64,000 nucleotides of DNA from Gemmatimonadales bacterium (lineage in GTDB: Bacteria; Gemmatimonadota; Gemmatimonadetes; Gemmatimonadales; GWC2-71-9). Both the position numbers and the translations under genes were made by a program. The stretch's first letter is position 1. Each line of letters begins with the position of its first letter. The notes beneath the pieces are model-generated. The model worked only from the letters and a program-made list of their open reading frames with translations, did not search any database and was not told the DNA's origin. Below, in pieces: positions 27,354-64,000 of this stretch. The stretch is taken from positions 6,091 to 70,090 of the forward strand of contig DATEHG010000069.1 in NCBI GenBank assembly GCA_035279705.1, read 5' to 3'.

Positions 27354-27357
27354 GTCT

Positions 27358-27382: not shown

Positions 27383-27395
27383 GCAAGAGGCGGGG

Positions 27396-28487: not shown

Positions 28488-28753
28488 GGCTGGTCACCAG
28501 ATCGCGGCGGGACAGGTCGTTGAGATACTCGATCACGTCGGCCGAGACGTCGGTCCCGTACTGCTCGGCAAGGGTGCCTGAAATTTCGCGCACCGTCCGC
28601 TGCCCGTCGCACAACTCGAGGATCGCGGCGCCCGTGTCGTTGATGAACATCGCGCCCTCCGGATAGAGCAGGACCCGGCGCTGGCGGACCCGGTCGAAGT
28701 CGATCCGCGCCAGGCGCCAGAGGCTGGGCCGTGAATCGGGGCCGATATTCACG
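28480..28753 (-). CDS. pqqD: PQQ biosynthesis peptide chaperone PqqD
   Basis: GTG 28753 overlaps the pqqC stop (GTGA). 91 aa: …RVLLYPEGAMFINDTGAAILELCDGQRTVREISGTLAEQYG…. Confidence 0.85.
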
Positions 28754-29510: not shown

Positions 29511-29558
29511 CCGTCGGTTCCGGGAAAGTTGCGCCGGAGCAATGTGGCGCTGGAGGCT

Positions 29559-29594
29559 GAAAATACGAACGGGGCCCGCCAGTCAGCGGGCCCC
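29559..29594 (-). terminator. Strong hairpin plus U-tract immediately after pqqA (attenuator between pqqA and pqqC)
   Basis: Minus strand GGGGCCCGC-UGACUG-GCGGGCCCC followed by GUUCGUAUUUUC. It begins 19 nt after the pqqA stop. Confidence 0.7.
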
Positions 29595-29612
29595 GCTCGG
29601 TGTGGCTTCTGC

Positions 29613-29687
29613 TTAGAGCGTGGCCACGTAGGCGGTGACTTCCATCGTTACCGCGACCACTTCGGCTTCGGGCTTCGTCCAGGTCAT
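29613..29687 (-). CDS. pqqA: PQQ precursor peptide PqqA (24 aa; not listed as its own entry, buried in track ORF 29613..29855)
   Basis: MTWTKPEAEVVAVTMEVTAYVATL carries the conserved E-x-x-x-Y (EVTAY) crosslink motif. GGAGG lies 7 nt upstream of the ATG. Confidence 0.85.
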   Translation of the reverse strand: MTWTKPEAEVVAVTMEVTAYVATL

Positions 29688-29795
29688 CGTGTTGCCTCCG
29701 AGTTGAGCCAGAAAGTTCGGGGAATCCCCGTGGTGTCCATACCAGGGCGGATCTCCCCGGCGAAGCCTGTGGGATGTCCGCAGGCGTATGGCAGG

Positions 29796-29813
29796 ATGCA
29801 CGTCGTGTGCCCG
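29796..29813 (-). promoter_or_regulatory. Candidate sigma-54 (-24/-12) promoter upstream of pqqA
   Basis: The minus strand reads cGGGCAC-ACGAC-GTGCAT, against the consensus TGGCAC-N5-TTGCA(T). GG and GC are at the correct 10-nt spacing. The element is about 110 nt upstream of the pqqA ATG. Confidence 0.6.
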
Positions 29814-29907
29814 GGTGATGACCTCCGGATGGAATTTCAAGCCGTTGCAATACAACAGCTTGAAGTCCAGCCAATCACTCGATAGAAAGCCCGGGGGTGG
29901 GGCAGAT

Positions 29908-29944
29908 GGGTGAAATCACCCAGCGACTGGGTCATCTCACCCAG
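29908..29944. promoter_or_regulatory. Three overlapping palindromes (candidate enhancer/UAS for the adjacent bEBP)
   Basis: GGGTGA-AA-TCACCC (29908..29921), ACCCAG-CGA-CTGGGT (29918..29932) and CTGGGT-CATCTC-ACCCAG (29927..29944). They lie about 100-150 bp upstream of the -24/-12 element and directly after the regulator stop codon. Confidence 0.45.
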
Positions 29945-29947
29945 TGG

Positions 29948-34274: not shown

Positions 34275-35176
34275 GCCTCGAACCGCATGCCGTCATCCCC
34301 CACGACCCAGCCGGCAGCCTCGACTGCCGTGCGTTCCTGCGACCGCTCGACCAGGACCGGATTGCTGTTGTTGATGTGAGTGTAGACCCGCCGGGACGGC
34401 GCGAGCGGTGTCACGATATCGAGGCTTCCACCGGTGCCACTCATCGGCAGATGCCCCATGGCAGCCGCGGGACGGTCACTGATGCCGAGATCCATCAGCT
34501 CGCGCTCGGACCAGAAGGTGCCGTCGAAGAGGAGCAGCGTCGCATTCCCGAGGCGCTCACGCAAATCGGCGTCGACACCGCCGCACCCCGGCACGAACAG
34601 GAGCCGGGCCCGGTTCGGGCCGCGGACGTCGAGGCCCACCGTGTGGCCGGGCAGATCACGACGGGCAAAGCGGGGCGGATCGCCCGGAACCCCGAACGCC
34701 TCCGCGATAAGACCGCTGGGCGCGCCGTCGCGCAGCAGCAGTGGTACCGCCTGGCCGAGGCCAAGCTCGTGCCAGCGGACCGCCGCAAAGGCGCTGGTGA
34801 CCGGCAGCAGCCGCGAATCCTCCTCGAGCACCGCCTTGACCGCGCCGGTCGACCACAGCTGGAGGGTTCTCGCTTCGCGCAGCAGCGCCAGGCCCATCGT
34901 GTGGTCGAGCTCGGCGTCGGTGGTGACAACGCCTTCGAACCCCGCGTGCCGGACACCCTCGGGGATTCCGTTCTGCAGGCGCCCGAGCTGGTCGCGGACA
35001 TCCGGTGAGGCGTTGAGCAGGAACCAGTGACGGCCGTCGGCGCTCACCGCCGCCGACGACTGGCTGCGGGGGTGGGCGCGCGCAGGATCGGCCCGGCCGA
35101 TGCGGCAGACCGGGCACCAGCAATTCCACTGGGGAAATCCGCCGCCTGCCGCGGTTCCGAGCAGGATGACGTGCAT
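34271..35176 (-). CDS. pqqB: PQQ biosynthesis protein PqqB (metallo-beta-lactamase fold)
   Basis: 301 aa: MHVILLGTAAGGGFPQWNCWCPVCR… , …SAAVSADGRHWFLLNASPD… and …YTHINNSNPVL…, all typical of PqqB. Confidence 0.9.
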   Translation of the reverse strand: MHVILLGTAAGGGFPQWNCWCPVCRIGRADPARAHPRSQSSAAVSADGRHWFLLNASPDVRDQLGRLQNGIPEGVRHAGFEGVVTTDAELDHTMGLALLREARTLQLWSTGAVKAVLEEDSRLLPVTSAFAAVRWHELGLGQAVPLLLRDGAPSGLIAEAFGVPGDPPRFARRDLPGHTVGLDVRGPNRARLLFVPGCGGVDADLRERLGNATLLLFDGTFWSERELMDLGISDRPAAAMGHLPMSGTGGSLDIVTPLAPSRRVYTHINNSNPVLVERSQERTAVEAAGWVVGDDGMRFEA

Positions 35177-49676: not shown

Positions 49677-50138
49677 GTGACCCGGAGACTGGCCGCACTG
49701 GCGCTGGTCGCGGCCTGGCCGGCCCAAGCCCAGACCAGTCCTCCGAGATTCGAGGCCGGGCTCCAGGCGCTGGGGGTGCTGGCGGAGCCGGATTATGGCG
49801 GTGCGGGGCCTTGGCTTGCCTGGCGGCCGGCACCCTCGCTGCGACTGGGCCTGCTGGCTACCGCAGGCGCCTCGGCCGGCAGCACCGCCGGGCGGGTCGA
49901 GGGCACCGGTCACCTGCTGCTCGAACCAGGGCGGATGACGGGTGCCGGGGTCTATTTCCTGGCGGGCGTGGCGTGGAGGATCACTCACGAGGACCGGGCG
50001 TTTCTGCTGGCCGGAATCGGAGTCGAGTCGGCCCCCGGGCGTCGGAGCGGATGGGTGGTCGAACTGGGGGTGGGAGGCGGCTGGCGGGCGACTGCCGGTT
50101 ACCGGTGGCGCTGGGGGGGGCGGCCCCCTTCACGCTAA
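49677..50138 (+). CDS. Hypothetical secreted protein, possibly a small beta-barrel
   Basis: GTG start and signal peptide LAALALVAAWPAQAQ. Gly/aromatic-rich alternating pattern. Confidence 0.45.
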   Translation: MTRRLAALALVAAWPAQAQTSPPRFEAGLQALGVLAEPDYGGAGPWLAWRPAPSLRLGLLATAGASAGSTAGRVEGTGHLLLEPGRMTGAGVYFLAGVAWRITHEDRAFLLAGIGVESAPGRRSGWVVELGVGGGWRATAGYRWRWGGRPPSR

Positions 50139-50144
50139 ACAGAA

Positions 50145-50166
50145 GGGCCGCCCCGCAGGGCGGCCC
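50145..50166. terminator. Bidirectional terminator hairpin between convergent genes
   Basis: GGGCCGCCC-CGCA-GGGCGGCCC (perfect 9-bp stem). The plus side is followed by CCATTTCAT and the minus side by TTCTGTTTAG. Confidence 0.65.
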
Positions 50167-50191
50167 CCATTTCATCCGGTGCCGGTCCGAC

Positions 50192-50464
50192 TCAGTTGAC
50201 CGATGCGGCAGCGGGAGCGGAATTGCGCGCCACGACGGGCTGGCAGAATCGCTCACCCAACTGCCTCAACTGCTGGACCTGCTCCTCGGCGAGATCTTCG
50301 TACCGCTCGCCGATGTACTGCATGGTATCGTCAAACCATTCCTTCTGGTGCTCCGGCAAGGCTTCCAGCACCTGGCACCGGAGGATATGGCTGAAAAGTT
50401 CGTCTCGGGCCTGATCAAAGCTGCTGGTGGTAGCGGTTTCTCGACGTGTCTTCTTTTTCGACAT
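50192..50464 (-). CDS. Hypothetical small protein (90 aa)
   Basis: Internal ATG 50464 (MSKKKTRRETATTSSFDQARDELFSHILRCQVLEALPEHQKEW…). The composition is protein-like. Confidence 0.45.
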   Translation of the reverse strand: MSKKKTRRETATTSSFDQARDELFSHILRCQVLEALPEHQKEWFDDTMQYIGERYEDLAEEQVQQLRQLGERFCQPVVARNSAPAAASVN

Positions 50465-50606
50465 TCTGGGTGCCCCCTTCTGGGCCGTTGATTGCACAAA
50501 TATAGCTGACTTGCACCATTCGTTGCAAACCCGGTCCCCGCCGTATCCTCCCTCCATTACATTTGCCCTCCGGAGTGCCGGGGCTCGAACCCGGTCAGGA
50601 GGCGCC

Positions 50607-50912
50607 ATGAGCGATCACGATGAAGTCTATGGGCAGCGACGGCTCGAAAAGCTGCAGGAGATGCTGCGGTCACTGGCCGAGCGGATCCGCGAGCTGGACG
50701 GGCAGGACGCGCTGCTGAGCAATGTGCCGGAGCTGCAACGGCGGCTGGGTGACCTCCGTTCGGAGCTCTTTCACTACGAAGTGCGGGCGACCTACGACAC
50801 CCCGGAGGTCGCCGCTCACCGCCGGCTGATTGAAGAGGCGGAACAGAGCGATCCCTTCCTTTACGATGACCCCGAGGACGATCAGCCATGGCGGAGCAGA
50901 CCGGCGGACTGA
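50607..50912 (+). CDS. Hypothetical acidic coiled-coil protein (101 aa)
   Basis: Internal ATG 50607 (MSDHDEVYGQRRLEKLQEMLRSLAERIRELDG…). Confidence 0.45.
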   Translation: MSDHDEVYGQRRLEKLQEMLRSLAERIRELDGQDALLSNVPELQRRLGDLRSELFHYEVRATYDTPEVAAHRRLIEEAEQSDPFLYDDPEDDQPWRSRPAD

Positions 50913-51571
50913 AGCCTTTCTACACCCTGATTGCCGTGGTGGCCGTACTCGGCGTCGGGGTCCTCGGATGGCTGATGAGCCAGCAGAAGCACGTGAGCCT
51001 GCCGGTGGACGTCACCGTGCAGGTGGCCGACACCGCCGGTTTCCGCGGCTATCTCCTCGGCTCCGATTCCGCCAAGGTCGAGATCACGGAATACGCCGAC
51101 TATCAGTGCTCCCACTGCGGCCAGTTTGCCGTGGTGCAGTTTCCCGATGTGCGCGCCCGGCTGATTGCCACCGGCAAGCTCCGGTGGCGGTTCCGTGATT
51201 ACCCCCTGAATGGTCACCCGCTGTCGCGGCTGGCCGCGCACTCGGCGGCCTGCGCCAATGACCAGGGCAAGTTCTGGGAGCAGAACGCCGCCATCTTCGA
51301 CGGCCAGGGGAACTGGGCCGTGCAGTCGAGCGGCGCCGACGACGTCTTCCGCGACTACGCCAAGGCCAACGGTCTCGACCTCAAGGCCTACGACGCCTGC
51401 ATGACCTCCGCCAAGTACGCGGGCCGGATCCAGGCCGACTACGAATCGGGGAACCGGCTGGGCGTCAATGCCACGCCGACCTTCCTGATCGCCGGGCGGT
51501 TGTATCCCGGCGGCCTCGCCGCCGACGATATCAAGCACATGGTCGACTCTCTCTCCGCCGTCGCCCACTGA
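50888..51571 (+). CDS. DsbA-family thiol:disulfide oxidoreductase, membrane-anchored
   Basis: 227 aa with an N-terminal TM helix. Thioredoxin fold with active site CSHC (…EYADYQCSHCGQF…) and …GVNATPTFLI…. Confidence 0.85.
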   Translation: MAEQTGGLKPFYTLIAVVAVLGVGVLGWLMSQQKHVSLPVDVTVQVADTAGFRGYLLGSDSAKVEITEYADYQCSHCGQFAVVQFPDVRARLIATGKLRWRFRDYPLNGHPLSRLAAHSAACANDQGKFWEQNAAIFDGQGNWAVQSSGADDVFRDYAKANGLDLKAYDACMTSAKYAGRIQADYESGNRLGVNATPTFLIAGRLYPGGLAADDIKHMVDSLSAVAH

Positions 51572-51572
51572 C

Positions 51573-51995
51573 ATGAAATACCGGATGGCCAGCACCCTGC
51601 TCAGTCTGTGCGGGGTGCTGCTGGCGGCCTATCTCTACCTGTACAAGACCGGGCGGATCGGCACCCTGGCCTGCGGCACCGGCTCCTGCGAGGCGGTGCA
51701 GTTCAGTCCGTACGCGCAGGTGTTCGGCGTCGAAGTATCGCTGATCGGCTTACTCGGCTACCTGGTGCTCGTGGCCTGTTCCATCGGAGCGGTGCAGGCA
51801 GCTCCCGGCCAGCGGACCGCTCCGGTCCGGGCGCTCTTCGTCCTCTCGGGGCTGGGGGTAGCCTTCAGCCTCTATCTCACGGGCATCGAGCTGTTCGTGT
51901 TGCACGCGATCTGCCGCTGGTGCGTGGGCTCGGCCCTGATCATCACCCTGATCTTCCTCTGCGCCCTCCTGGACCGGCGGCGCACGGCTCGATGA
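51573..51995 (+). CDS. Vitamin K epoxide reductase (VKOR) family protein
   Basis: 140 aa with 4 TM segments, loop cysteines (LACGTGSC) and the CRWC active-site motif in the last helix. Confidence 0.85.
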   Translation: MKYRMASTLLSLCGVLLAAYLYLYKTGRIGTLACGTGSCEAVQFSPYAQVFGVEVSLIGLLGYLVLVACSIGAVQAAPGQRTAPVRALFVLSGLGVAFSLYLTGIELFVLHAICRWCVGSALIITLIFLCALLDRRRTAR

Positions 51996-53953
51996 GCCTG
52001 ACACTCCAGGCCAACACCGGCAGCATGCCCGCCGGCGCAGTCCACGAGCCGAAGGCGAGCCCGCGGGGGATGGCCCTCGCGGGCCTTTCGCTGGCCGCCC
52101 TCGGTGTGGTGTACGGCGACATCGGCACCAGTCCGCTCTACGCCATCAAGGAGTGTTTCGGCGCCGCGCACGGGGTCGAACCGACTCCCGAAAATGTGCT
52201 GGGGATTCTGTCGGTCGTGCTCTGGGCGATGAACTTCGTGATCTCCTACAAGTACATCGCGCAGGTCATGCGGGCGGACAACCAGGGAGAAGGCGGCATC
52301 CTCGCGCTGCTGGCGCTGGTCCGGCCGCAGGGTGAGCCGACCCGCTGGGGCCGGCTGCTGATCATGCTGGGGGTGTTCGGGGCGGCGCTGCTCTACGGCG
52401 ACGGTGTGATCACGCCGGCCATCTCGGTGCTGGGCGCCACGGAAGGCCTCAAGGTCACCACCGAGCGGTTCGAACCGTTCGTGGTGCCGATCACCGTCGT
52501 AATCCTGATCCTGCTCTTCTGGTTCCAGAAGCAGGGCACGGCCGGCATCGGCCGGATCTTCGGACCGGTGATGGTGGTCTGGTTCGCGTGCATTGCGCTG
52601 CTGGGCGTGGGCGGCATCGTGCGCGAGCCTTCGGTGCTCAAGGCCATCAACCCGATGTACGCCGTGGATTTCTTCCGCCGGGACGGGCTGCAGGGGTTCC
52701 TGATCCTCGGCGCCGTCGTGCTGGTGCTTACCGGCGGGGAAGCGCTGTACGCCGACATGGGTCATTTCGGCAAGCGGCCCATCCGGCTGGCGTGGTTCGG
52801 CATGGTGCTGCCGGCACTGATGCTCAACTACTTCGGCCAGGGGGCGCTGCTGCTGGACGATCCTTCCGCGGCGGTCAACCCCTTTTACCTGCTGGTGCCC
52901 GAATGGGGCCGCTATCCGATGATCGCCATTGCGACTGCCGCGGCGATCGTGGCTTCCCAGGCGCTGATCTCGGGCGCATTCTCCCTGACCCGCCAGGCCA
53001 TCCAGCTGGGCTTTTCCCCGCGGGTGACGGTGACTCATACCTCCGCCACCGAGCAGGGCCAGATCTACGTGCCGGAGGTCAACTGGGCGCTGATGGTCAG
53101 CTGTGTCGGCCTGGTGCTGGCCTTCCGCTCGTCGAGCAACCTGGCGGCGGCGTACGGCATCGCGGTGACCGGAACGATGGCGATCACCACCGTGCTGTTT
53201 GCCCGGGTGACTCGGATCCACTGGCACTGGCCGGTCTGGCGCACGATCATCGTCGCCGGACTGTTCCTGGTCGTGGACCTGGCCTTCTTCGGCGCCAACC
53301 TGGTCAAGGTGCATCAGGGAGGATGGTTTCCGCTGGTAATCGGCGCGCTGATCTACCTGCTGATGAGTACCTGGAAACGGGGGAGGGTGCTGCTGTCGCG
53401 GGTCATGGAAGAGAACAGCCTGCCGATCCAGATCTTTCTCAGCGACGTGGCCCGCCGGCTGCCGACCCGGGTGCCCGGCACCGCCGTGTTCATGACTTCG
53501 AGGGCCGGGGGCGCGCCGCCGGTGCTGCTGCACCACGTCAAGCACAACAAGGTGCTGCACGAGCGGGTAATCCTGATGTCGGTCAAGGCGCTCGGGGTGC
53601 CGATGATCGACGAGGCCCAGCGGGTGGCGCTCGAGTCGCTGGGCGACGGGTTCTACGCCGTCGAGGCGCGCTACGGGTTCATGGAATCACCGGATGTGCC
53701 GGCGGCGCTCCGGGCCCTGGTGCAGTTCGGCATCACGGTGAAGCCGATGGAGACCACCTTCTACCTCGGGCGCGAGACGCTGATCGTCACCATGCCCAAG
53801 CGCGGCGTCGAACCGCCGCCCCTCGAGCGCCGCATGTGGCGCTGGCGCAAACTGCTCTTCGTGGTGATGGCCAGGAATGCGCAATCGGCCACGGCGTTCT
53901 TCAACCTGCCGCCGAACCGGGTCGTGGAAATGGGGGCGCAGATACAATTCTAG
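51992..53953 (+). CDS. kup: KUP/HAK/KT potassium uptake protein
   Basis: Internal ATG 51992 overlaps the VKOR stop (ATGA). …LGVVYGDIGTSPLYA…NQGEGGILAL…GDGVITPAISVL… and a C-terminal cytoplasmic domain. Confidence 0.9.
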   Translation: MSLTLQANTGSMPAGAVHEPKASPRGMALAGLSLAALGVVYGDIGTSPLYAIKECFGAAHGVEPTPENVLGILSVVLWAMNFVISYKYIAQVMRADNQGEGGILALLALVRPQGEPTRWGRLLIMLGVFGAALLYGDGVITPAISVLGATEGLKVTTERFEPFVVPITVVILILLFWFQKQGTAGIGRIFGPVMVVWFACIALLGVGGIVREPSVLKAINPMYAVDFFRRDGLQGFLILGAVVLVLTGGEALYADMGHFGKRPIRLAWFGMVLPALMLNYFGQGALLLDDPSAAVNPFYLLVPEWGRYPMIAIATAAAIVASQALISGAFSLTRQAIQLGFSPRVTVTHTSATEQGQIYVPEVNWALMVSCVGLVLAFRSSSNLAAAYGIAVTGTMAITTVLFARVTRIHWHWPVWRTIIVAGLFLVVDLAFFGANLVKVHQGGWFPLVIGALIYLLMSTWKRGRVLLSRVMEENSLPIQIFLSDVARRLPTRVPGTAVFMTSRAGGAPPVLLHHVKHNKVLHERVILMSVKALGVPMIDEAQRVALESLGDGFYAVEARYGFMESPDVPAALRALVQFGITVKPMETTFYLGRETLIVTMPKRGVEPPPLERRMWRWRKLLFVVMARNAQSATAFFNLPPNRVVEMGAQIQF

Positions 53954-54021
53954 CCGTTAGCCGTTGGCCGCCAGCAGGTCAATGGTCATCGGTCGCCGGC
54001 CCCTTGGTTAAGTCCGCTTGA

Positions 54022-54050
54022 CTCTCTCCTCTCTCCTCTCTCCTCTCTCC

Positions 54051-54051
<1 letters not shown>
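54022..54051. repeat. Tandem heptamer microsatellite (CTCTCCT)x4 abutting the acs stop codon
   Basis: ct-CTCTCCT-CTCTCCT-CTCTCCT-CTCTCCT on the plus strand, which is (AGGAGAG)n on the acs strand immediately after its TGA. Confidence 0.85.
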
Positions 54052-56006
<1,955 letters not shown>

Positions 56007-56143
56007 GCCGGAATCCTGACGGGAGTAGGCAAACCCTTCGGGCTTGCAGATTTAGAACGATGCCGCGGAGTGCCATCCGAAGTAAGCGAATCGGGGCCAG
56101 TTCCGCAATGCTAACTCATTGATTCGCTTTCAGTTACCTCCAC

Positions 56144-56159
56144 TGGCACCGCTCTCGCA
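56144..56159 (+). promoter_or_regulatory. Sigma-54-like -24/-12 element upstream of the STAS-REC-ccm genes
   Basis: TGGCAC-CGCTC-TCGCA against TGGCAC-N5-TTGCA, with one mismatch in the -12 box. It lies about 230 nt upstream of the STAS ATG. Confidence 0.4.
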
Positions 56160-56376
56160 CTATACCCTGGCACGGGCCACCTGGCCCACCACAATTGATC
56201 CGCCCGATAGAGCACACCCGGAGTGATCCGGGGCCGCAAAACTAGAGGTCTCTCCAGTTCCAGCGGGGAGATAGCTCGGTGCCGAAGGCGGGATGCACCG
56301 CGAATGCGAGTGAACGTCCCGTTGCGCCTCACGGCGATGAGACCTCGTGTACGCGGAATCGGGCGTGGGAGGATGG

Positions 56377-56691
56377 ATGCTGACCACGCAACCGAACTCG
56401 AAGAACCTGGTAGCCCCGGATCACCTGGGGCTCGAATCGCGAACCGAGTTCCGCCAGCAGGCCACTGCCCTGCTCGACACCTTGCCCGATCGCACCGGCT
56501 GTCTGGTCATCGACCTGGCCGGCACCCGCCAGGTGGATTCGGCGGGACTCGGGGCCCTGATGCTGGTCCAGCGCCGCGCCGCCGAGCGCAAGCAGGTGGT
56601 GGTGCTGCGGAACGTGAACGAGGAGCTCCGCTTCCTGCTGGTGCTCACGAAGCTGGACGATCTCTTCCAGCTCGAATCCGGTCAGGTTTGA
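56377..56691 (+). CDS. STAS-domain protein (anti-sigma-factor-antagonist-like)
   Basis: ATG 56377 is preceded by GGAGG (the track has GTG 56347). …LVIDLAGTRQVDSAGLGALMLVQRRAAERKQVVVLRNVNEELRFLLVLTKLDDLF…. Confidence 0.8.
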   Translation: MLTTQPNSKNLVAPDHLGLESRTEFRQQATALLDTLPDRTGCLVIDLAGTRQVDSAGLGALMLVQRRAAERKQVVVLRNVNEELRFLLVLTKLDDLFQLESGQV

Positions 56692-56704
56692 TTACAGGGG
56701 TCGC

Positions 56705-57094
56705 ATGACCGCTACGGTCGCACCGCTCCGGGTCCTGTTCATCGAGGACGAGGCCGCCCTCCAGCTGAGCTACCGGCGGTATTTCGCCAGCCGGTACGAG
56801 GTGGCCACCGCGGCGAGCGGCGCCGACGCCTTGCGGCAGCTTGTGGCCCATCCTCCCGAAGTGGCCGTGCTGGACATGCGGCTGCCGGATACGGACGGGA
56901 TCGATCTCCTGCGCCGGCTGCGGGCTGAACTGCCCGATCTGCCGGTCGTGATTACCACGGCCTATCTGAGTGTCGAGCCCCAACTCCGAGTCCTCAACCT
57001 TTCCTACCACGGCTACATCGTCAAGCCGTTCGATCTCGACGAGCTCGGTCGAGCCATCGAACAGGCCGGATCCGCGGTGGCTGCTCGCCGCTGA
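56705..57094 (+). CDS. Single-domain response regulator (REC)
   Basis: 129 aa: VLFIEDE…VAVLDMRLPDTDG…VVITTAY…YIVKPF. Confidence 0.85.
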   Translation: MTATVAPLRVLFIEDEAALQLSYRRYFASRYEVATAASGADALRQLVAHPPEVAVLDMRLPDTDGIDLLRRLRAELPDLPVVITTAYLSVEPQLRVLNLSYHGYIVKPFDLDELGRAIEQAGSAVAARR

Positions 57095-57776
57095 AGGGCT
57101 GGTCCGCCGCTACGGCGCCCGCCGGGTGCTGAACGGCCTCTCGCTGTCTCTCGCTCCCCACGACTGTCTGCTGGTGCTGGGTCCCAACGGGGCCGGCAAG
57201 TCCACGCTCCTGCGCCTGCTGGCGGGCCTGATCCGTCCGCACGCCGGATCGGTGCATGTCGCCGGCCGGCGTCTCGCGGCGGATGATCCCGGGTCTCGCG
57301 CCTCCCTCGGGCTGGTCGCCCACCAGACGATGCTCTATGACGACCTCACCCTGCGCGAGAACCTGCTCTTTGCCGCGCGCCTCTATGACCTGCCCGATGG
57401 CGCAGGCGCTGTGGCCCAGGCGCTGGCGGAGGCGGGACTCACTGGCCGTGCGGAGGACCGGCCCCGGGACCTGTCGCGAGGCATGCAGCAGCGCGCCGCG
57501 ATCGCGCGGGCGCTGCTCCACCGCCCCCGGGTGCTGCTGCTCGACGAGGCGTTCACCGGGCTCGATGCGGCCTCGGGCGACCGGCTGCGGACCCGGCTCG
57601 CGGAGGAACGCTCCCGGGGCGCCGCCCTGGTGGTCGTGAGCCATCACCCGGATGAGGCCTGGGCGCTCGCGACCCACGTCGGATTCCTGAACGACGGCCG
57701 CTGGGCGCGGCTGGAGCCTCGGCCCTCTCACCTGTCGACCGCCGAGGGGTGGTTGCGGGAGGCGGCGCATGGCTGA
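56970..57776 (+). CDS. ccmA: Heme exporter ATP-binding protein CcmA (start uncertain)
   Basis: Walker A GPNGAGKST, signature LSRGMQQRAAIARAL and Walker B LLLDEA. The conserved domain begins near 57078 (LLAAEGLVRRYG), but the only ATG/GTG/TTG in frame upstream is GTG 56970, which would overlap the REC gene by 125 nt. Confidence 0.75.
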   Translation: MSSPNSESSTFPTTATSSSRSISTSSVEPSNRPDPRWLLAAEGLVRRYGARRVLNGLSLSLAPHDCLLVLGPNGAGKSTLLRLLAGLIRPHAGSVHVAGRRLAADDPGSRASLGLVAHQTMLYDDLTLRENLLFAARLYDLPDGAGAVAQALAEAGLTGRAEDRPRDLSRGMQQRAAIARALLHRPRVLLLDEAFTGLDAASGDRLRTRLAEERSRGAALVVVSHHPDEAWALATHVGFLNDGRWARLEPRPSHLSTAEGWLREAAHG

Positions 57777-58449
57777 GGCCGTCCGCGCCGCGCTCGCCAT
57801 CGCGGGCAAGGATCTGCGCCTCGAATGGCGCAGCCGGAGTGCGCTGCTCTCGGCCGTCGTGTTCGCCGCGCTGGTGCTGGTGATCTTCAATTTCGCCCGC
57901 GACCCCACGGCTGTTTCCACCCTCGATCTGGCCCCGAGCATCCTGTGGGTCACGTTCGGCTTCGCGGCGATCGTGGCCCTGAACCGGGCCTTCACGGTGG
58001 AGCGCCAGCACGGGGCGCTCGCCAGCCTGCTGCTCGCGCCGGTGCCGCGGAGCGCCATCTTTGCCGGGAAGTATCTGGCCAACCTGGTGTTCGTCGGTGT
58101 GGTGGAACTGGTCACGCTGCCGCTCTTCGTGCTGTTCTTCAATGTCGATCTGAGCGGGGCACTGGCGGGCCTGCTGGCGGTGATCGTGCTGGCGACGATC
58201 GGTTTCGTGGCGGTGGGGACCGTGTTCAGCGCCATGGCGGTGCGCACCCGGTTCGCCGAACTGATGCTGCCGGTGCTGCTGCTGCCATTCATGATGCCGC
58301 CGCTCATGACGGCGGCCCAGGCCACTAGCCGGCTGCTCGGGGGTCGTCCGTTGAGCGAACTGATGGGGTGGCTTAGGTTGCTTTCACTCTATGACGTCGC
58401 CTTTGTGACGCTTTCCTTCCTGATCTTTCCGGCGGTGGTCGACGAATGA
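57769..58449 (+). CDS. ccmB: Heme exporter permease CcmB
   Basis: 226-aa 6-TM ORF: …AGKDLRLEWRSRSALLSAVVF…FTVERQHGALASLLLAP…. Confidence 0.85.
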   Translation: MAEAVRAALAIAGKDLRLEWRSRSALLSAVVFAALVLVIFNFARDPTAVSTLDLAPSILWVTFGFAAIVALNRAFTVERQHGALASLLLAPVPRSAIFAGKYLANLVFVGVVELVTLPLFVLFFNVDLSGALAGLLAVIVLATIGFVAVGTVFSAMAVRTRFAELMLPVLLLPFMMPPLMTAAQATSRLLGGRPLSELMGWLRLLSLYDVAFVTLSFLIFPAVVDE

Positions 58450-59147
58450 GTTCCGTTCTGGCGGCGGCCGGTCGCGTGATGCAGCGAGGCCGCCTCATCA
58501 CCCTCGCGGGGCTGGCACTGCTGGCCGCCGTGGTGGTGCGGGCCCAGTGGTTCACTCCGGTGGAGGAGCGCCAGGGCCTCGCCCAGAAGATCTTCTACCT
58601 GCACGCCCCCTCGGCCTGGTCGGCCCTCTTCCTCGGGTTCGGCCTCGTCGGCATCAGTTCGGCACTCTATCTCTGGCTCGAGGATCCGCGGCTCGACCGG
58701 TTCGCCGCGAGCTCGGCCGAGGTGGGCGTGGCCTTCAGTTCCGTCATGCTCACGACCGGCCCGATCTGGGCCAAGCCGATCTGGGGCACGTACTGGAGCT
58801 GGGACATGCGGCTCTCGATGACGCTGCTGCTGGTGCTCCTGTTCCTCGGGTACCTGGCGCTCCGCAGCGCGCTTGACGACCGCAGCGAGCGGGCGCGGTA
58901 CAGCGCGGTCATCGGGGTGATGGCCCTGGTGCTGGTGCCGTTCATCCACCTTACCGTGTACCTGTTCCGCACCCTGCATCCGCAGCCGATCGTGCTCAAA
59001 CCCAGCGCTCCGTCGCTGCCGCCGGAGATGCTGTACACACTGCTGCTGGGGTTCGTGGCGACCAGCGTGATGTACCTGGGATTCGTGACCCTGCGCTACG
59101 GTATCGCGCTGGCGCGGGAAGCGCAGGAGGATGACCGCCATGATTGA
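58446..59147 (+). CDS. ccmC: Heme exporter/heme lyase subunit CcmC
   Basis: 233 aa with the WWD-type tryptophan-rich motif WAKPIWGTYWSWDMRL. ATGA overlap with ccmB. Confidence 0.9.
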   Translation: MSSVLAAAGRVMQRGRLITLAGLALLAAVVVRAQWFTPVEERQGLAQKIFYLHAPSAWSALFLGFGLVGISSALYLWLEDPRLDRFAASSAEVGVAFSSVMLTTGPIWAKPIWGTYWSWDMRLSMTLLLVLLFLGYLALRSALDDRSERARYSAVIGVMALVLVPFIHLTVYLFRTLHPQPIVLKPSAPSLPPEMLYTLLLGFVATSVMYLGFVTLRYGIALAREAQEDDRHD

Positions 59148-59265
59148 CCCGCCCGACAACCGCGGGTTCATGGTGGCCGGCTACACGGTCGCGCTGACCC
59201 TCTACCTGCTGTACACGATCTCCCTCTGGATCCGCGCCAGGAAGGCGGAGCGCGGAGAACGGTAG
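59140..59265 (+). CDS. ccmD: CcmD-like small membrane protein (41 aa; below the ORF-track size cut-off)
   Basis: ATG 59140 overlaps the ccmC end. MIDPPDNRGFMVAGYTVALTLYLLYTISLWIRARKAERGER has one TM helix and a basic tail, in the position and of the size expected for CcmD. Confidence 0.6.
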   Translation: MIDPPDNRGFMVAGYTVALTLYLLYTISLWIRARKAERGER

Positions 59266-59289
59266 ACCCGGGCTTCGCCCGGGTCTACC
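59261..59289. terminator. Perfect 12-bp-stem hairpin between convergent ccmD and aqpZ
   Basis: GGTAGACCCGGG-CTTCG-CCCGGGTCTACC. The ccmD TAG lies inside the 5' arm. There is no U-tract on either side. Confidence 0.55.
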
Positions 59290-59298
59290 GCGGCGGGA

Positions 59299-59967
59299 TT
59301 ACTCGCCCTTGAGCAGCACCCGGTCCCACAGCAGGCCGGCCACCACCCCACCCACCAGCGGACCGATCCACCACACCGCATGCGCGCTCCACACACCCGC
59401 GACGGCCGCCGGGCCGAACGCGCGCGCGGGGTTCATCGCCGCGCCGGTCAGCGCGCCGCCCATCAGGATATCGAACAGCAGCACCAGCCCGATGGCAAAG
59501 CCGCCCACCTTGGGGGCGTTCTTCGCGACTGCCGTCCCGTAGACCGCACTGACCAGGAAGAAGGTCAGTATCGCCTCCAGTGCCACCGCCTGGCCGAAGC
59601 CCATTCCCGGCGCGAGGGTCGGCAGGCCGAGTGAGGTCACCTTCTCGATGGCCACCGGCAGCACGAGCTTGAGCGCCAGCGCGCCGGCGACGCCGCCCAC
59701 GAGCTGCGTCACGATGTAGGCACCGGCCGTCCGGGCATCGATCCGGCGCCCGACGAGCAGCCCCGTGGTGACCGCCGGGTTGAAGTGACCGCCCGAGATG
59801 TTCATCAGCGCGGTGACCATGACGCCGAGCACCAGCGCGTGAGCCAGGGCGATGCCGAGCAGCCCGAAACGGGCGTAGCTGTCGGCGATGACGCTGCCGC
59901 AGCCGATGAAGATCAGGGCAAATGTGCCCAGGAACTCCGCAACCAGACGACGGGACAGCGGGACCAT
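59299..59967 (-). CDS. aqpZ: Aquaporin Z / MIP family channel
   Basis: 222 aa with two NPA boxes (GGHFNPAVT and GAAMNPARAFG). Confidence 0.9.
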   Translation of the reverse strand: MVPLSRRLVAEFLGTFALIFIGCGSVIADSYARFGLLGIALAHALVLGVMVTALMNISGGHFNPAVTTGLLVGRRIDARTAGAYIVTQLVGGVAGALALKLVLPVAIEKVTSLGLPTLAPGMGFGQAVALEAILTFFLVSAVYGTAVAKNAPKVGGFAIGLVLLFDILMGGALTGAAMNPARAFGPAAVAGVWSAHAVWWIGPLVGGVVAGLLWDRVLLKGE

Positions 59968-60028
59968 GCCGAAGCCTCAGCGAACGGGGAGATTGGCGGG
60001 AGGAAAACCGGGGCCGAATCTAGAAACA

Positions 60029-60051
60029 GGGGGGGAAGGGGGGAAGGGGGG
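60029..60051 (+). repeat. G-tract array G7-AA-G6-AA-G6 (potential G-quadruplex with the GGG at 60063)
   Basis: gggggggaaggggggaagggggg, located in the aqpZ upstream / KS-operon downstream intergenic region. Confidence 0.8.
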
Positions 60052-60062
60052 ACGACAACTGC

Positions 60063-60139
60063 GGGATTGTGGGAATGTGGGAGTATGGGATTAGGGCACC
60101 TGAGCCTCCAATCCCATACTCCCACAATCCCCCATTCCT
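60063..60139. repeat. 77-nt inverted repeat made of TGTGGGA/TATGGGA octamer-like units (17-bp perfect stem, 17-nt loop)
   Basis: TGTGGGAGTATGGGATT (60076..60092) pairs perfectly with AATCCCATACTCCCACA (60110..60126). The arms extend imperfectly to about 30 nt each. The element starts 2 nt after the KS-gene stop. Confidence 0.75.
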
Positions 60140-60140
60140 C

Positions 60141-61385
60141 TCATTCGTTTCTGCGGAACACCAGGCAGGCATTCACGCCGCCGAACCCGAACGAATTGCT
60201 GACGATCACTCCCGGAGTGGCGTCCTGCCCGGCGCCTGTGATGTAGCCGAGGTCACAGGCGGGATCGGGCGTCGCCAGGTTGACGGTGGGGGGAAGCCAG
60301 CCGCGGGCGCTCGCCAGCGCGCAGATGGCCGCCTCGATGGCCCCGCTCGCCCCGAGGGCGTGACCATAGTAGCCCTTGGTGCCGCTCACCGGCAGGCGGG
60401 CAGTGTGACCGTTGAAGACCTGCCGGATGGCCCCGGACTCGGTCGGATCGTTGAGCGGAGTGGACGAGCCGTGGGCGTTGAGATAACCAACGTCCCCCGG
60501 AGCCACGTGCGCATCCGCGAGGGCCAGCCGCATGGCGCGCGCCGCCTGCCGGCCGTCCGGACGCGGTGCGGTCATGTGATGGGCGTCGTTGGTGAGGCCA
60601 TAGCCGCAGAGTTCGAGATAGATCGGGGCACCGCGGGCGATGGCCCGCTGCCGCTCCTCCAGCACGAGGACCGCCGCACCCTCTCCCATCACGAAACCGT
60701 CGCGTCCCGAATCGAAGGGACGGCTGGCGGTGGCGGGGTCGTCGTTGCGGGTGGACATGGCGCGGATGATCGCGAACGAGCCGAAGCAGAGCGGAGCGAG
60801 TGGCGCCTCCGCCCCGCCGGCCAGCATGACATCGGCCTCGCCGCGGCGGATCGCGCGCAGGCCCTCTCCGATTCCGATGGTGCCCGAGGCGCAGCTCATC
60901 CCGTTGGTGCTGTTCGGGCCGGTGACGCCGAACTCGATGGCGATGTTGCAGCTGGCCGCGCCGGCGAAGACCGAGAGCGCCAGGGCGGGATCCACGGCCC
61001 GCATGCCGCCGGTCACGTAGTGGCCATGCTCCTCCTCGGCGCGACCGATGCCGCCGAGCGCAGTGCCCATCATGACGCCGATGCGGTCGGGATCCTCGAC
61101 GGACAGGTCCAGATGGGCGTCGGCCAGGGCCAGCCGGGTGGCGGCCACGCTGAACTGGGAGTAGCGGTCGAACCGCCGGGCCCGCCGCTCCTCCAGGTGG
61201 TCGGTTGCGAAGAAGTCGTTCACCTGGGCCGCGATCTTCGATCGGAATGGCGCCGGATCGAACCGGGTGATGCCCTGCACCACGGAGCGCCCGGAGCGCA
61301 GTCCCTGCCAGAGTCCTTCCACGCCCACACCGATGGGCGTGATCGCTCCGATTCCCGTCACTACTACCCGCCGCTCGTCCATCAT
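60141..61385 (-). CDS. Beta-ketoacyl synthase, KAS II (FabF)-like
   Basis: Internal ATG 61385 (MMDERRVVVTGIG…). Active-site Cys in NGMSCASGTIG, and the two His residues in NAHGSSTPLND and GYYGHALGASG. Confidence 0.9.
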   Translation of the reverse strand: MMDERRVVVTGIGAITPIGVGVEGLWQGLRSGRSVVQGITRFDPAPFRSKIAAQVNDFFATDHLEERRARRFDRYSQFSVAATRLALADAHLDLSVEDPDRIGVMMGTALGGIGRAEEEHGHYVTGGMRAVDPALALSVFAGAASCNIAIEFGVTGPNSTNGMSCASGTIGIGEGLRAIRRGEADVMLAGGAEAPLAPLCFGSFAIIRAMSTRNDDPATASRPFDSGRDGFVMGEGAAVLVLEERQRAIARGAPIYLELCGYGLTNDAHHMTAPRPDGRQAARAMRLALADAHVAPGDVGYLNAHGSSTPLNDPTESGAIRQVFNGHTARLPVSGTKGYYGHALGASGAIEAAICALASARGWLPPTVNLATPDPACDLGYITGAGQDATPGVIVSNSFGFGGVNACLVFRRNE

Positions 61386-61837
61386 ACCTGCTCCACGCGT
61401 TGCCGTATCCCCGCCAGCGTCCTCGAGGCAATACCATGAACAAACACCGGCCCGATGACCCATCTCGCCGCCGCCGTACCGATCAGCGGCCAGCGTGGCC
61501 CGGGCCACTCGTGCACGATTTCGGCGTCACTGCCGCCTTCGCTTTCGCGCACCGTCCACCAGACGTCCATACCGCGGGTGATTCCCCGGATGTGACGGTA
61601 GCGCACTTCCCGGCGGACCGGGTCGACCGACATTTCCGAGACCCACCAGGTGGGCCAGCGGAATCCAGGGAAGGGACGCCAGGCGGCCATCTCCACCACA
61701 CGCATGCCCGCGTCACGCTTGAGCTCCCTGACCCATCGATAATGCGACAGGAACTCCGGCCACTGCTCCACCTCGCTGGCCGCTGCGAACACCCGATCCG
61801 CAGGGGCCGCCATGTGCAACCGGTCGATGATTCGCAT
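61382..61837 (-). CDS. SRPBCC (polyketide cyclase/dehydrase, START-like) protein
   Basis: Internal ATG 61837 (MRIIDRLHMAAPADRVFAAASEVEQWPEFLSHYRWV…). 151 aa, with ATGA overlaps at both ends. Confidence 0.7.
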   Translation of the reverse strand: MRIIDRLHMAAPADRVFAAASEVEQWPEFLSHYRWVRELKRDAGMRVVEMAAWRPFPGFRWPTWWVSEMSVDPVRREVRYRHIRGITRGMDVWWTVRESEGGSDAEIVHEWPGPRWPLIGTAAARWVIGPVFVHGIASRTLAGIRQRVEQV

Positions 61838-62533
61838 CAGCCGACCGGCTGCCAGGCCGCGACCAGCCGGAACATCGGATGGCGCCAGACGTGGCCCCTG
61901 ATGCCGGCTCCCTCCAGCGCCGCGATGAGCTCCGGTGCCGAAAAACCCCGGCGGATCGAGCGCAACCCGTCGCTCCGGGTGTCGGGATCGAACCGGAGGA
62001 GATGGGCGCCGATCCAGAAGCCTGCCTGGGCGAAGCGGCTGCGTCGCAGGTCGGTGACTATCACGCCTCGCCGGGCGACTCTGTCGCACTCGGTCAGCAG
62101 CGCGGCCAGGACCTCCGCCTCGAGATGATGCGCCACCTGGCTCACCGTGATCAGGTCGACGCTGCGGGAGCGGAGCGGCAGTGCGGCGCCGCAGCCCAGC
62201 AGGGTCGGGAGGCCGGCCGCGAACGCCAGCCGAGCGGCCGCCGGATGCCGCTCGAGGCCGAACGGCTGGATCACCAGGCCGCGCCGCTCTCCCCAGGCTA
62301 CGGCCGCCCTGGGGAGGTCGCCCAGTCCGGTACCGACGTCGAGAAGGGTGAAGCGGTCGCCCTGCCGCGCGTCGGCGAGGAGTTTCCGGAGTGCACTCGC
62401 CACCGCCGACCGCCCACCGAACCACCGGTTGGAGCGGGCAATGTTCTGGAGCGACAGCGCCACACGGTCCGGGTCGGCAGCCAAGTCATCCAGCAGCTCG
62501 GCGCCCGCGGGCGGTCGCAGTGCTCCGTTCACG
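61837..62533 (-). CDS. Class I SAM-dependent methyltransferase
   Basis: GTG 62533 overlaps the flavin reductase stop (GTGA). Motif I is LLDVGTGLGDL. 232 aa. Confidence 0.75.
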
Positions 62534-63014
62534 GTGTGAGATCGGCGTAGCCGCCGCGGTAATACAGCAACGGGTGTCCCTCCGTCGTGCTCCCCCCGGT
62601 GACCCGACCGACGAACAGGGTGTGGTCGCCCAGCTCGTGGGCGGCGAAGTACTCGCATTCGATGTGGGCCAGCACCCCTTCGAGTACGGGGAGCTGGCCC
62701 GCCGTCATCCGGTATCCTACTCCGGCAAACCGGTCCGCTGTTTGTTCCCCGGCGAAACGGCGGGACAACCCTTCCTGGCCGGCCGAGAGGAGGTTGACGA
62801 CGAACGGACGGCGGTCGGCCAGGACCCGGTGAGTCTCCGCCTGGCGATCGATGCAGACGGACAGCAGCGGCGGTGCCAGCGACACCGAGGAGAGGGAGTT
62901 GGCCGTCATGCCCACCGGTGCCCCATCCATGCCGCGTGCCGTGATGACCGCGACGCCGGTGGGGAAGTGGCCAAGCAGCTGGCGGAAGAGCGCGGTGTCG
63001 ACGTCGGTGGTCAT
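62529..63014 (-). CDS. Flavin reductase (FMN-binding split-barrel) family protein
   Basis: 161 aa: …LFRQLLGHFPTGVAVITARGMDGAPVGMTANSLSSVSLAPPLL…. Confidence 0.85.
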   Translation of the reverse strand: MTTDVDTALFRQLLGHFPTGVAVITARGMDGAPVGMTANSLSSVSLAPPLLSVCIDRQAETHRVLADRRPFVVNLLSAGQEGLSRRFAGEQTADRFAGVGYRMTAGQLPVLEGVLAHIECEYFAAHELGDHTLFVGRVTGGSTTEGHPLLYYRGGYADLTP

Positions 63015-64000
63015 CAGAGCAGCATGCGCGCGAGGAAGACCGGATTGAGCACGGCCGCAGCCGGGAGGCAGTCACCGGTGACGCCGATCAGGGTGTCCGC
63101 CATTCCCGCCCGCTGGCCAAGCCGCCGGACGGCGTGATTGAAGAGTGCGGGCCAGAGCATCGCATAGCCAATGAGCCGCTCGACTCCCCACGTACCGAGG
63201 AACTCCTGGCGCCGCCGCGCCGCGTAGGGGGCCAGATGCCGGGCCGTGATCCGCTCCGACCGTTCGAACAGCGGGATCAGGCATTCCGCTGCCAGCTCGG
63301 CACCCCGCAGCGCGCGATAGATCCCCTCACCAGTGAAGGGATCGAAGAAGTCCGCGGCATCGCCCACGAGGAGAGCCCCGTCGCGAACGACGGGACGCGT
63401 CCGCGCCGCGAAGGGACCCGTCACCAGGATTTCCCGAACCACCCGATCGGGAGAGATGCGGCCCCGGACGTCCGGCAGGTCATCGAGCGCGGCGAAGAAG
63501 AAATCGGCCACGCGGCCGCCGGCCAGCGTGGCCCGGTGCGCCGGCACGACGAGAGCGACATTCGTCACGCCCCCGCCGATCGGATTGAGACCCGCGTATC
63601 CCTCCGGGCCCACATGCAGTTCGGCAGACCCTCCGAGACCCGAGACGTCCTCGACATGGGCGACGAACGCCATGCGGGACGGTGTGCCGAGCGTGCGGCG
63701 TCCCGCCCGGCGCGCCACCACGGAGCGGAGACCATCGGCGCCAACCGTGATCCGGGCCCTCACCTCATGGTGAGCGCCGTCTTCGCCGCGGAGCTTCGCT
63801 CCCTGCACTTCGCCGCCGTTCTCGATCAATTCGACGACGGAAACGCCCTCGACCACCAGGGCGCCGGCGCGGCGAGCGGCGTGGACCAGCTCGGCGTCCA
63901 GAATCCGGCGCGCGACCGAGAGGCCGGTGGACCGCCAGGCCGGGGTGGTAAGGCGGGCGAACTCCCCGCTCAGGCGCGCGCCGCCGGATGCGGTCACGGT
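63014..64000 (-). CDS. FAD-dependent oxidoreductase, geranylgeranyl-reductase/aromatic-hydroxylase-like (C-terminal part; N-terminus beyond the right edge)
   Basis: …ITVGADGLRSVVARR… and …LVGDAADFFDPFTGEGIYRAL… (the GD motif of flavoprotein monooxygenases/reductases). The N-terminal GxGxxG region is not in the window, so the track start at 63997 is not the true start. Confidence 0.8.
   Translation of the reverse strand, partial: TVTASGGARLSGEFARLTTPAWRSTGLSVARRILDAELVHAARRAGALVVEGVSVVELIENGGEVQGAKLRGEDGAHHEVRARITVGADGLRSVVARRAGRRTLGTPSRMAFVAHVEDVSGLGGSAELHVGPEGYAGLNPIGGGVTNVALVVPAHRATLAGGRVADFFFAALDDLPDVRGRISPDRVVREILVTGPFAARTRPVVRDGALLVGDAADFFDPFTGEGIYRALRGAELAAECLIPLFERSERITARHLAPYAARRRQEFLGTWGVERLIGYAMLWPALFNHAVRRLGQRAGMADTLIGVTGDCLPAAAVLNPVFLARMLL

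Follow-up and report, generated by a model that had tools for sequence, protein, structure and literature searches.

Introduction

Does the β-ketoacyl synthase (KS) encoded at one end of a stretch of Gemmatimonadales DNA serve ordinary fatty-acid synthesis (FAS), or does it belong to a specialised pathway? The stretch, called the window here, comprises 64,000 nucleotides of contig DATEHG010000069.1 from a Gemmatimonadales metagenome-assembled genome (MAG; GCA_035279705.1), and five successive minus-strand open reading frames (ORFs) occupy positions 60141..64000, i.e., up to the window end. In the order of transcription, they encode a flavin adenine dinucleotide (FAD) flavoprotein of the geranylgeranyl reductase (GGR) family, a flavin reductase, a class I S-adenosylmethionine (SAM) methyltransferase (MT), an SRPBCC (helix-grip) protein and the KS. 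An initial annotation, made from the sequence alone, had assigned these domains and had read the genes as a co-directional, translationally coupled unit of a specialised lipid or polyketide pathway; the domain assignments are confirmed by Pfam and NCBIfam, and the coupling by the overlap of all four gene junctions.

Comparison of the locus with its relatives showed that the SRPBCC and KS genes are the invariant functional core of a module, in which MT, flavoprotein and reductase are variable accessory genes. At least two bacterial phyla share this core, as do unclassified metagenome lineages. By their sequences, the module KSs form a separate FabF-derived subfamily that has been co-inherited with the SRPBCC protein, and with the MT, across phyla, which argues for the specialised pathway proposed initially. 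A phenolic-lipid pathway fed by FAS is the reading that we tentatively prefer, and it is weighed below against three alternatives.

Conservation of the SRPBCC–KS core

The constancy of the pair was counted over the loci with enough sequence: 72/72 genome loci and 58/61 metagenome loci have KS directly after SRPBCC. The three metagenome exceptions (L099–L101) carry a divergent SRPBCC paralogue without KS, which overlaps the end of a cytochrome P450 gene (e.g., L100 4507-6029) and reads HDRWV in place of HYRWV (Tyr33 to Asp); these matches were rejected as module members, i.e., as a divergent P450-coupled paralogue. Around the core, the MT gene is usually present and the flavoprotein gene is frequent, in two alternative positions. 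The reductase and a DUF92 gene are restricted to Gemmatimonadales, where most loci carry the reductase, which is absent from other lineages. A fixed core with variable tailoring genes of this kind is typical of scaffold-plus-tailoring pathways.

Outside Gemmatimonadota, an exhaustive profile search showed the MT family to be broad (1138 clusters at 50% identity, E ≤ 1e-10), and a 408-aa natural MT::SRPBCC fusion from a low-GC lineage (P0228) led to further module contexts. The complete genome of Capsulimonas corticalis, a cultured member of Armatimonadota, has the order hemL-MT-SRPBCC-KS, and hemL-MT-GGR-SRPBCC-KS was recovered in L094–L097 by a metagenome scan that used the Armatimonadota-type SRPBCC protein as query. 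In the Armatimonadota-type loci, hemL (TIGR00713, 607 bits) directly precedes the MT gene (L084 8716-10014; L086 3453-4784; L094–L097), and the two overlap by 14 nt in L084 and L086. The order MT-GGR-SRPBCC-KS was found in L087, L088 and L132. In L089, MT-SRPBCC-KS stands between a GntR gene and cellulase genes, and in L090 the order is MT-SRPBCC-KS-aquaporin, with hemB, hemC and hemD just past the KS-aquaporin pair. Finally, two loci from the metagenome scan (L111 and L126) contain the bare SRPBCC-KS pair.

Other apparent fusions were examined alongside P0228. P0153 (639 aa) and P0144 (314 aa) seem to join the flavoprotein tail, reductase, MT and SRPBCC; however, they were treated as frameshift artefacts because of out-of-frame-looking stretches and fragments of neighbouring genes, pointing to frameshift or gene-calling errors in error-prone contigs. 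P0157 may be a true second MT–SRPBCC fusion, with some uncertainty, and P0311 (391 aa) has an over-long, seemingly mis-called N-terminus.

The SRPBCC family is strongly conserved, with 6806 database matches, and within Gemmatimonadota 55 columns are invariant in 16 diverse members. A one-genome-per-species scan returned at least 233 relatives, the best 80 of which are all from Gemmatimonadota (one is titled 'bacterium HR33'), and nearly all of these best 80 loci have the order DUF92-flavoprotein-reductase-MT-SRPBCC-KS-aquaporin. However, synteny inside Gemmatimonadales was discounted as functional evidence, because the entire surrounding region of about 20 kb is colinear across dozens of species-level MAGs (L004–L083, e.g., L004 5621-20452; window ~50000-64000). 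It runs from a divergent unknown gene and DUF92 through KS to aquaporin, ccmCBA, a response regulator, STAS, acs, kup, VKOR and dsbA, and gene order at this level is therefore uninformative. The functional argument is thus limited to conservation in differing surroundings. As an observation in itself, the stability of this 20-kb synteny is unusual at 55–80% protein identity.

Differing surroundings are also found inside Gemmatimonadota. In three MAGs (L070, L033 and L062), menG lies divergently upstream of flavoprotein-MT-SRPBCC-KS, and the reductase, DUF92 and aquaporin genes are missing; in a fourth genome (L052), pilMNO lies upstream of the module. The menG products of this reductase-less subclade (L070 7168-7950, L033 443-1189 and L062 7133-7879, all on the minus strand) are true MenG/UbiE proteins, scoring above the TIGR01934 cutoff. 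A MenG homologue (L093 1828-2574, minus strand) also lies divergently beside a related PRK06202-type MT gene on a Blastocatellia (acidobacterial) contig without KS. Taken over all lineages, the module repeatedly adjoins respiratory-cofactor genes, i.e., hemL (often overlapping MT), hemBCD, ccmABC and menG. This linkage is compatible with a role in a redox lipid; it could also be coincidence.

A distinct subfamily of FabF-derived ketosynthases

The KS gene (60141..61385, minus strand; 414 aa; PF00109 and PF02801) encodes a FabF-type enzyme. The most serious alternative to a specialised pathway is therefore that the KS is the housekeeping FabF, with the SRPBCC protein as an acyl carrier protein (ACP)-binding accessory of FAS-II, similar to the mycobacterial MSMEG_5634/Rv0910 in binding acyl-ACP, and with the MT and flavoprotein unrelated or only loosely related to it. 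We consider this explanation rather unlikely, and the evidence from the KS itself is divided. The window KS scores 501.3 bits against TIGR03150, the FabF equivalog, which is above the curated cutoff of 493.75 bits, and NCBI names the identical protein as a FabF ('beta-ketoacyl-ACP synthase II'). The Cys-His-His triad seen initially is present (Cys165, His305 and His342), and, together with Lys337 and the GFGG gatekeeper Phe401, it is found in 75/75 full-length module KSs, giving a complete catalytic apparatus. The solved FabFs of cyanobacteria, Firmicutes and Thermus (Synechocystis, Bacillus, Listeria and Thermus) match the window KS with 387–397 bits and about 50% identity, compared with 310 bits for the actinorhodin KS and about 216 bits for FabB. 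The identity to E. coli FabF is roughly 40–42%, calculated with an approximate E. coli query sequence that was also used for residue numbering. High conservation and apparently vertical inheritance likewise favour a housekeeping enzyme.

However, the module KSs straddle the equivalog cutoff, e.g., 523 bits for the Capsulimonas enzyme and 477.8 bits for that of L087, and some of them thus fall below it. In addition, 75/75 full-length module KSs carry [DN]PxLALxVFxGAxSCNxAI at residues 132–150, replacing the canonical SPF(F/M)(V/I)PxMI, whereas the FabFs of Synechocystis, Bacillus and Listeria have SPF(F/M)(V/I)P in the same alignment columns. This helix forms part of the acyl pocket and of the dimer interface in FabF, and its subfamily-specific substitution is kept across phyla. 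The module KSs are 56–77% identical to one another across lineages, and the window KS matches the Capsulimonas module KS with 59.8% identity and 540 bits; on these scores, it is closer to the module KSs of another phylum than to any solved FabF.

The genomic context of the KS, which the initial annotation had placed outside acpP and fab surroundings, also bears on its identity. In about 165 loci, tblastn found KS beside no acpP or other KS gene, and KS always adjoins SRPBCC; a linkage to acpP and fab genes is common for a housekeeping FabF, though not required. For ACP, the E. coli and B. subtilis proteins were used as queries in the 64-kb window and loci L001–L083 only, where neither an ACP nor a second KS was found; the metagenome loci L094–L173 were searched for a second KS, without ACP as a query, and none was found. 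Each locus has a single KS gene in the approximately 10 kb on either side, with no chain-length-factor (CLF) partner, and the Pfam-annotated loci contain no PP-binding gene. The lack of a second KS in any locus sequence examined counts in favour of the housekeeping explanation. If the KS is the only FabF of these genomes, the obligatory association with an SRPBCC protein would be a novelty in bacterial fatty-acid synthesis.

A precedent for such a partner exists. According to the abstract of the study on MSMEG_5634/Rv0910, this helix-grip protein binds acyl-ACP (acyl-AcpM) and works together with FAS-II, and the abstract does not mention a linkage to a ketosynthase (PMC9014085). However, MSMEG_5634/Rv0910 is absent from the sequence matches and from the top 50 fold matches of the module SRPBCC protein.

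The SRPBCC protein and the accessory enzymes

The SRPBCC gene (61382..61837, minus strand; 151 aa; PF03364) encodes a protein that resembles the aromatase/cyclases (ARO/CYC) of type II polyketide synthases (PKS). Its best PDB sequence matches are WhiE-ORFVI and TcmN (profile search, E 2e-9), and an AlphaFold2 (AF2) model with a pLDDT of 88 gave WhiE, TcmN and ZhuI as the best Foldseek matches, with E about 1e-11 (best 2e-11) and TM 0.76–0.88. No Coq10 structure is among its 50 best fold matches. The equivalents of TcmN Trp28, Tyr35, Trp65 and Ser67 are conserved, residues whose roles we take to be those described in the TcmN literature. Across phyla, 29 columns are invariant, including His32, Tyr33, Arg54, Ser67, His82 and His109. 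This set of invariant polar residues looks like an active site, suggesting that the SRPBCC protein is more enzyme-like than carrier-like. Both this feature and the fusion of the MT to SRPBCC in one lineage speak against a passive FAS-II accessory and a merely neighbouring MT, as the housekeeping explanation would have them.

The MT (61837..62532, minus strand; 231 aa, GTG start; PF08241) was assigned by Pfam and NCBIfam scans to Methyltransf_11 and to the uncharacterised PRK06202 family (122 bits). Its AF2 model (pLDDT 94) is closest in fold to small-molecule MTs of a generic kind, among them CouO/NovO, which are aromatic C-methyltransferases, and Coq5. No support was found for a connection of the MT family with type III PKS operons: three sampled distant contexts of the family, i.e., a major facilitator superfamily (MFS) transporter, a halogenase/TAL cluster and menG-pyrE, are without type III PKS or KS. 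As a side observation, a distant PRK06202-type MT in L092 (6001-12547) belongs to an unrelated aromatic natural-product-like cluster; its other products include two genuine flavin-dependent halogenases, which have WxWxIP, as well as an O-methyltransferase and an aromatic ammonia-lyase. A BioC/pimelate reading of the MT together with the KS was rejected, with no TIGR02072 match and a BioC fold TM of 0.42. It is also countered by the Armatimonadota aminotransferase beside the MT, which is HemL rather than BioA, and by the dispensability of the MT in several lineages.

The flavoprotein gene (63014..>64000, minus strand; PF01494) runs past the window edge, with 328 of its 412 codons in the window, and its full-length product was analysed from the near-identical contig L001. 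It scores 147.3 bits against the geranylgeranyl reductase family TIGR02032, whose subfamily cutoff is 158.8 bits, followed by QhpG (111 bits) and MenJ (90 bits); the L087 homologue scores 145.1 bits against TIGR02032. After the GGR superfamily, its next-best families are the quinone-forming aromatic hydroxylases QhpG, LodB and GoxB, and in the PDB it is closest to carrier-protein-dependent FADH2 halogenases and to archaeal GGR. Of the GGR motifs PxCGG and YxWxFP, the first keeps its Cys (DKPCSE, with SE in place of GG) and the second is degenerate; in L132, the homologue reads KPCGD. The flavoprotein carries the GGR-type motif GDAAxFxDPxTGEGI where the aligned halogenases have DP(I/V)FSSG. A halogenase identity was rejected because the catalytic Lys and the WxWxIP motif are missing: CndH Lys76 corresponds to Leu81, and the WxWxIP position reads GYAGLNP. 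The best PDB and NCBIfam relatives of the protein include the two-component halogenases PltA, Bmp2, Mpy16, ChlB4 and CndH, whose substrates are tethered to carrier proteins, and the hydroxylases QhpG/LodB, and a reductase gene is adjacent here too; the protein differs from the halogenases in these motifs, and its scores are all under the family cutoffs.

The adjacent gene encodes a short-chain flavin reductase of the HpaC/StyB/HsaB type (62529..63014, minus strand; 161 aa; PF01613, 150 bits), and such a separate reductase adjoins the flavoprotein gene in most Gemmatimonadales loci. Its NCBIfam matches, i.e., HPA-hydroxylase reductase (134 bits), HsaB (133 bits) and StyB (110 bits), are of the two-component aromatic-hydroxylase type, and the reductase could supply FADH2 to the flavoprotein. 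Parts suited to aromatic or quinone tailoring, which the initial annotation had pointed out, are therefore all represented: an ARO/CYC-like SRPBCC protein, a small-molecule MT, and an aromatic-hydroxylase-like flavoprotein with an HpaC-type reductase.

Proposed pathway and alternatives

With these parts, we propose that a KS/cyclase pair fed by FAS builds a phenolic lipid, which the MT and the flavoprotein subsequently methylate and hydroxylate. Since the module lacks its own ACP, acyltransferase, reductase and thioesterase, its supply is inferred to come from fatty-acid synthesis, from which it would take acyl-ACP and malonyl-ACP. The KS would append one or more malonyl units, and the ARO/CYC-like SRPBCC protein would catch the β-keto or poly-β-keto acyl-ACP ahead of its reduction by FabG. 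The SRPBCC protein would then dehydrate or cyclise the chain, giving a free phenolic lipid of the alkyl-pyrone or alkyl-resorcinol type, whose ring would be methylated by the MT. In Gemmatimonadota, the flavoprotein, using the FADH2 of the HpaC-type reductase, would hydroxylate the ring to form a hydroquinone/quinone. This scheme fits best because of the parts present and because a constant core is accompanied by varying tailoring genes; we hold its mechanism with somewhat less than even confidence, because a single FabF-like KS has no precedent known to us in this role and because the inheritance resembles that of primary metabolism.

Two groups of known systems are similar to the proposed pathway. 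The first is type II PKS (WhiE-ORFVI, TcmN, ZhuI): the module, too, encodes a KAS I/II-fold KS beside an SRPBCC protein, which is monodomain here and has ARO/CYCs as its closest solved relatives. An MT–SRPBCC fusion also has its counterpart in TcmN, whose PDB molecule name describes a fusion of cyclase and O-methyltransferase, although the domain order of the module fusion is reversed. However, the module has a single FabF-like KS, with no CLF, dedicated ACP or malonyl transferase nearby, and the match of this KS to FabF (397 bits) is better than that to the actinorhodin KS (310 bits). The second group consists of SrsABC, HidABC and the planctomycetal MT-oxidoreductase-type III PKS operons, which combine a scaffold-forming condensing enzyme with an MT and an FAD oxidoreductase and contain no ACP gene (PMC10896814). 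The module shares with them the enzyme classes, the small ACP-less operon and the predicted sequence of condensation and cyclisation, methylation and hydroxylation; it differs in that a KAS II-type enzyme and a separate cyclase replace the type III PKS. No gene of the chalcone-synthase family, i.e., type III PKS, was found in any Pfam-annotated related locus. The parallel, in essence the one that the initial annotation had suggested, remains an analogy, with the MT and flavoprotein matched by enzyme class only.

Several observations weigh against the phenolic-lipid scheme. The KS is FabF-like throughout, with its full triad, GFGG gatekeeper and NCBI naming, and is presumably a homodimer, with no CLF or dedicated ACP nearby. 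To our knowledge, there is no precedent for a single FabF-like KS, without CLF or an ACP of its own, making a poly-β-keto chain. In the SRPBCC protein, Arg69 of TcmN/WhiE is not conserved and aligns to Met in Gemmatimonadota or Gln in Armatimonadota. The fold matches of the MT are generic (TM about 0.6), and no type III PKS-linked relative was found among its three sampled distant contexts. In addition, the module is apparently inherited vertically, with sequence conservation about equal to that of acetyl-CoA synthetase, and such highly conserved, vertical inheritance is more typical of primary than of secondary metabolism.

A conservation pattern like that of primary metabolism would suit an alternative in which the module is a branch point of FAS leading to modified acyl chains. 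Here, the SRPBCC protein would be a dehydratase/isomerase and the KS, being FabB-like, would extend the unusual intermediate, while the MT and a GGR-type reductase using reduced flavin would turn a double bond into a methyl branch, a step modelled by analogy on BfaB/BfaA of 10-methyl fatty-acid synthesis. The bare two-gene SRPBCC-KS core of L111 and L126 would resemble the logic of fabA-fabB, and a self-contained module relying on the ACP of FAS suits this explanation, as does the flavoprotein, whose best family is the geranylgeranyl (C=C) reductase superfamily, with the GGR-type Cys and GDAAxFxDPxTGEGI kept. However, the MT is not of the olefin-methylating cyclopropane-fatty-acid (CFA) synthase type, matching only Methyltransf_11 and PRK06202, and the nearest relatives of the SRPBCC protein are aromatase/cyclases. 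The MT and flavoprotein are also dispensable in several lineages, and we know of no SRPBCC acyl-ACP isomerase. On balance, such a branch of FAS appears distinctly unlikely.

Very unlikely, finally, is the tailoring of an isoprenoid quinone (e.g., menaquinone) by a MenJ-type flavoprotein, a ring-methylating MT, a Coq10-like SRPBCC protein and DUF92 as prenyl-phosphate kinase, with the KS as a passenger: the flavoprotein does match MenJ and the UbiH family, JGI auto-names relatives as Coq10 and UbiE/UbiG, menG lies divergently beside the module (L070, L033, L062) and beside a related MT (L093), DUF92 is upstream and Coq5 is among the MT fold neighbours, but a prenyltransferase is missing, the matches to MenJ and UbiH fall far short of their cutoffs, the SRPBCC protein is nearer to ARO/CYC by both sequence and fold, with no Coq10 in the top 50, and the KS is the most constant SRPBCC partner, kept even where MT, GGR and DUF92 are missing, and therefore cannot be a passenger.

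Returning to the phenolic-lipid scheme, a more specific version of it concerns the product and its function. Gemmatimonadota, Armatimonadota and further uncultured lineages might make a polyketide-derived alkyl-(methyl/methoxy)-hydroquinone/quinone from FAS intermediates, as an auxiliary membrane redox carrier, via an unrecognised minimal 'type II-like' synthase, i.e., a homodimeric FabF-derived KS plus an ARO/CYC-like SRPBCC protein, with no CLF and no dedicated ACP. Such a carrier would account for the recurrent position of the module beside hemL, hemBCD, ccmABC and menG; as a whole, this version is a speculation to which we give low probability.

Full-text literature searches found no description of the module, and its database names are all generic. 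The KS is likely filed under housekeeping fatty-acid synthesis, because of its NCBI name, and for the same reason rule-based cluster finders may overlook the module, which occurs in at least 233 species-level genomes of Gemmatimonadota and in a second phylum. If the phenolic-lipid scheme is true, the module would represent a new minimal route to aromatic polyketides from FAS intermediates and would give two abundant, little-studied soil phyla an additional membrane lipid or redox carrier. Its three or four small genes and the cultured host Capsulimonas corticalis would then offer a ready test system.

Operon boundaries and neighbouring genes

The junctions of the window operon had been read initially as ATGA, GTGA, ATGA and ATGA. 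All four do overlap; however, two of the motifs were misread, as the flavoprotein/reductase (63014) and MT/SRPBCC (61837) junctions are 1-nt overlaps of the form TGATG, while the reductase/MT junction is GTGA and the SRPBCC/KS junction is ATGA. Overlapping junctions are frequent in GC-rich genomes, and it is thus the conservation across lineages, rather than the overlaps, that puts the operon beyond chance.

The initial annotation had also expected that the operon starts outside the window, where an ACP, ligase or further genes might lie. The first part proved correct. The near-identical 30.8-kb contig L001, found by exact-protein look-up, extends upstream of the window edge and supplies the 84 absent N-terminal codons of the flavoprotein, including GAGPAGS, and then a DUF92 membrane-protein gene (255 aa) that ends 7 nt 5′ of the flavoprotein gene; the next gene is divergently transcribed. 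The operon thus has six genes (DUF92, GGR-family flavoprotein, flavin reductase, MT, SRPBCC and KS), of which the window holds the distal five-sixths. The second part did not hold, since every ORF of the six-gene operon is accounted for and the extension beyond 64000 revealed neither a type III PKS nor an ACP, ligase or acyltransferase gene. The earlier interpretation therefore stands for the operon, its domains, its context and the KS subfamily, and falls for informative upstream genes and two junction motifs. Besides the name of the KS, the NCBI names of the identical proteins are 'SRPBCC family protein', 'methyltransferase domain-containing protein', 'flavin reductase family protein', 'NAD(P)/FAD-dependent oxidoreductase' and 'DUF92 domain-containing protein', all filed under Gemmatimonadales bacterium.

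At the other end, a hairpin (60069..60133, minus strand) lies directly 3′ of the KS stop codon, with arms at 60077-60092 and 60110-60125. Its stem of about 22 bp is near-perfect (GTGGGAGTATGGGATT and its complement) and is followed by a C-rich tract, with no U-tract; the hairpin 16-mer is unique within the window. The RNA fold of the intergenic region has an energy of −72.6 kcal/mol (z = −4.2), and a consensus terminator scan did not call the post-KS hairpin. The hairpin likely marks the operon end, and it could be a variant of a rho-independent-like terminator or a repeat element. The aquaporin (MIP) gene, 173 nt downstream of KS (59299..59967, minus strand; PF00230 in L001), is a syntenic neighbour, probably in a separate transcription unit; it is found 3′ of KS in most Gemmatimonadota loci and also in L090.

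Two minor observations concern further genes. In several Gemmatimonadales, an ORF of about 150–185 aa, lipoprotein-like and without a Pfam match, lies between DUF92 and the flavoprotein gene (L009 2749-3309; L011 1605-2066; L023 7063-7602; L027 5595-6134; L049 7052-7606); it has the conserved C-terminal motif ...SW..V.....PGD.Q..TT.WRF...C.... and is absent from the genome of the window. Moreover, the window contains a gene set for another quinone cofactor, of the pyrroloquinoline quinone (PQQ) type, about 25 kb from the operon (26844-35176, minus strand). It encodes a Lactamase_B_2 protein with a PqqB-like N-terminus (34271-35176), a TENA/PQQC-family protein (28749-29510) and a radical-SAM/SPASM PqqE-like protein (27396-28487), with a MarR gene and a sigma-54 activator nearby.

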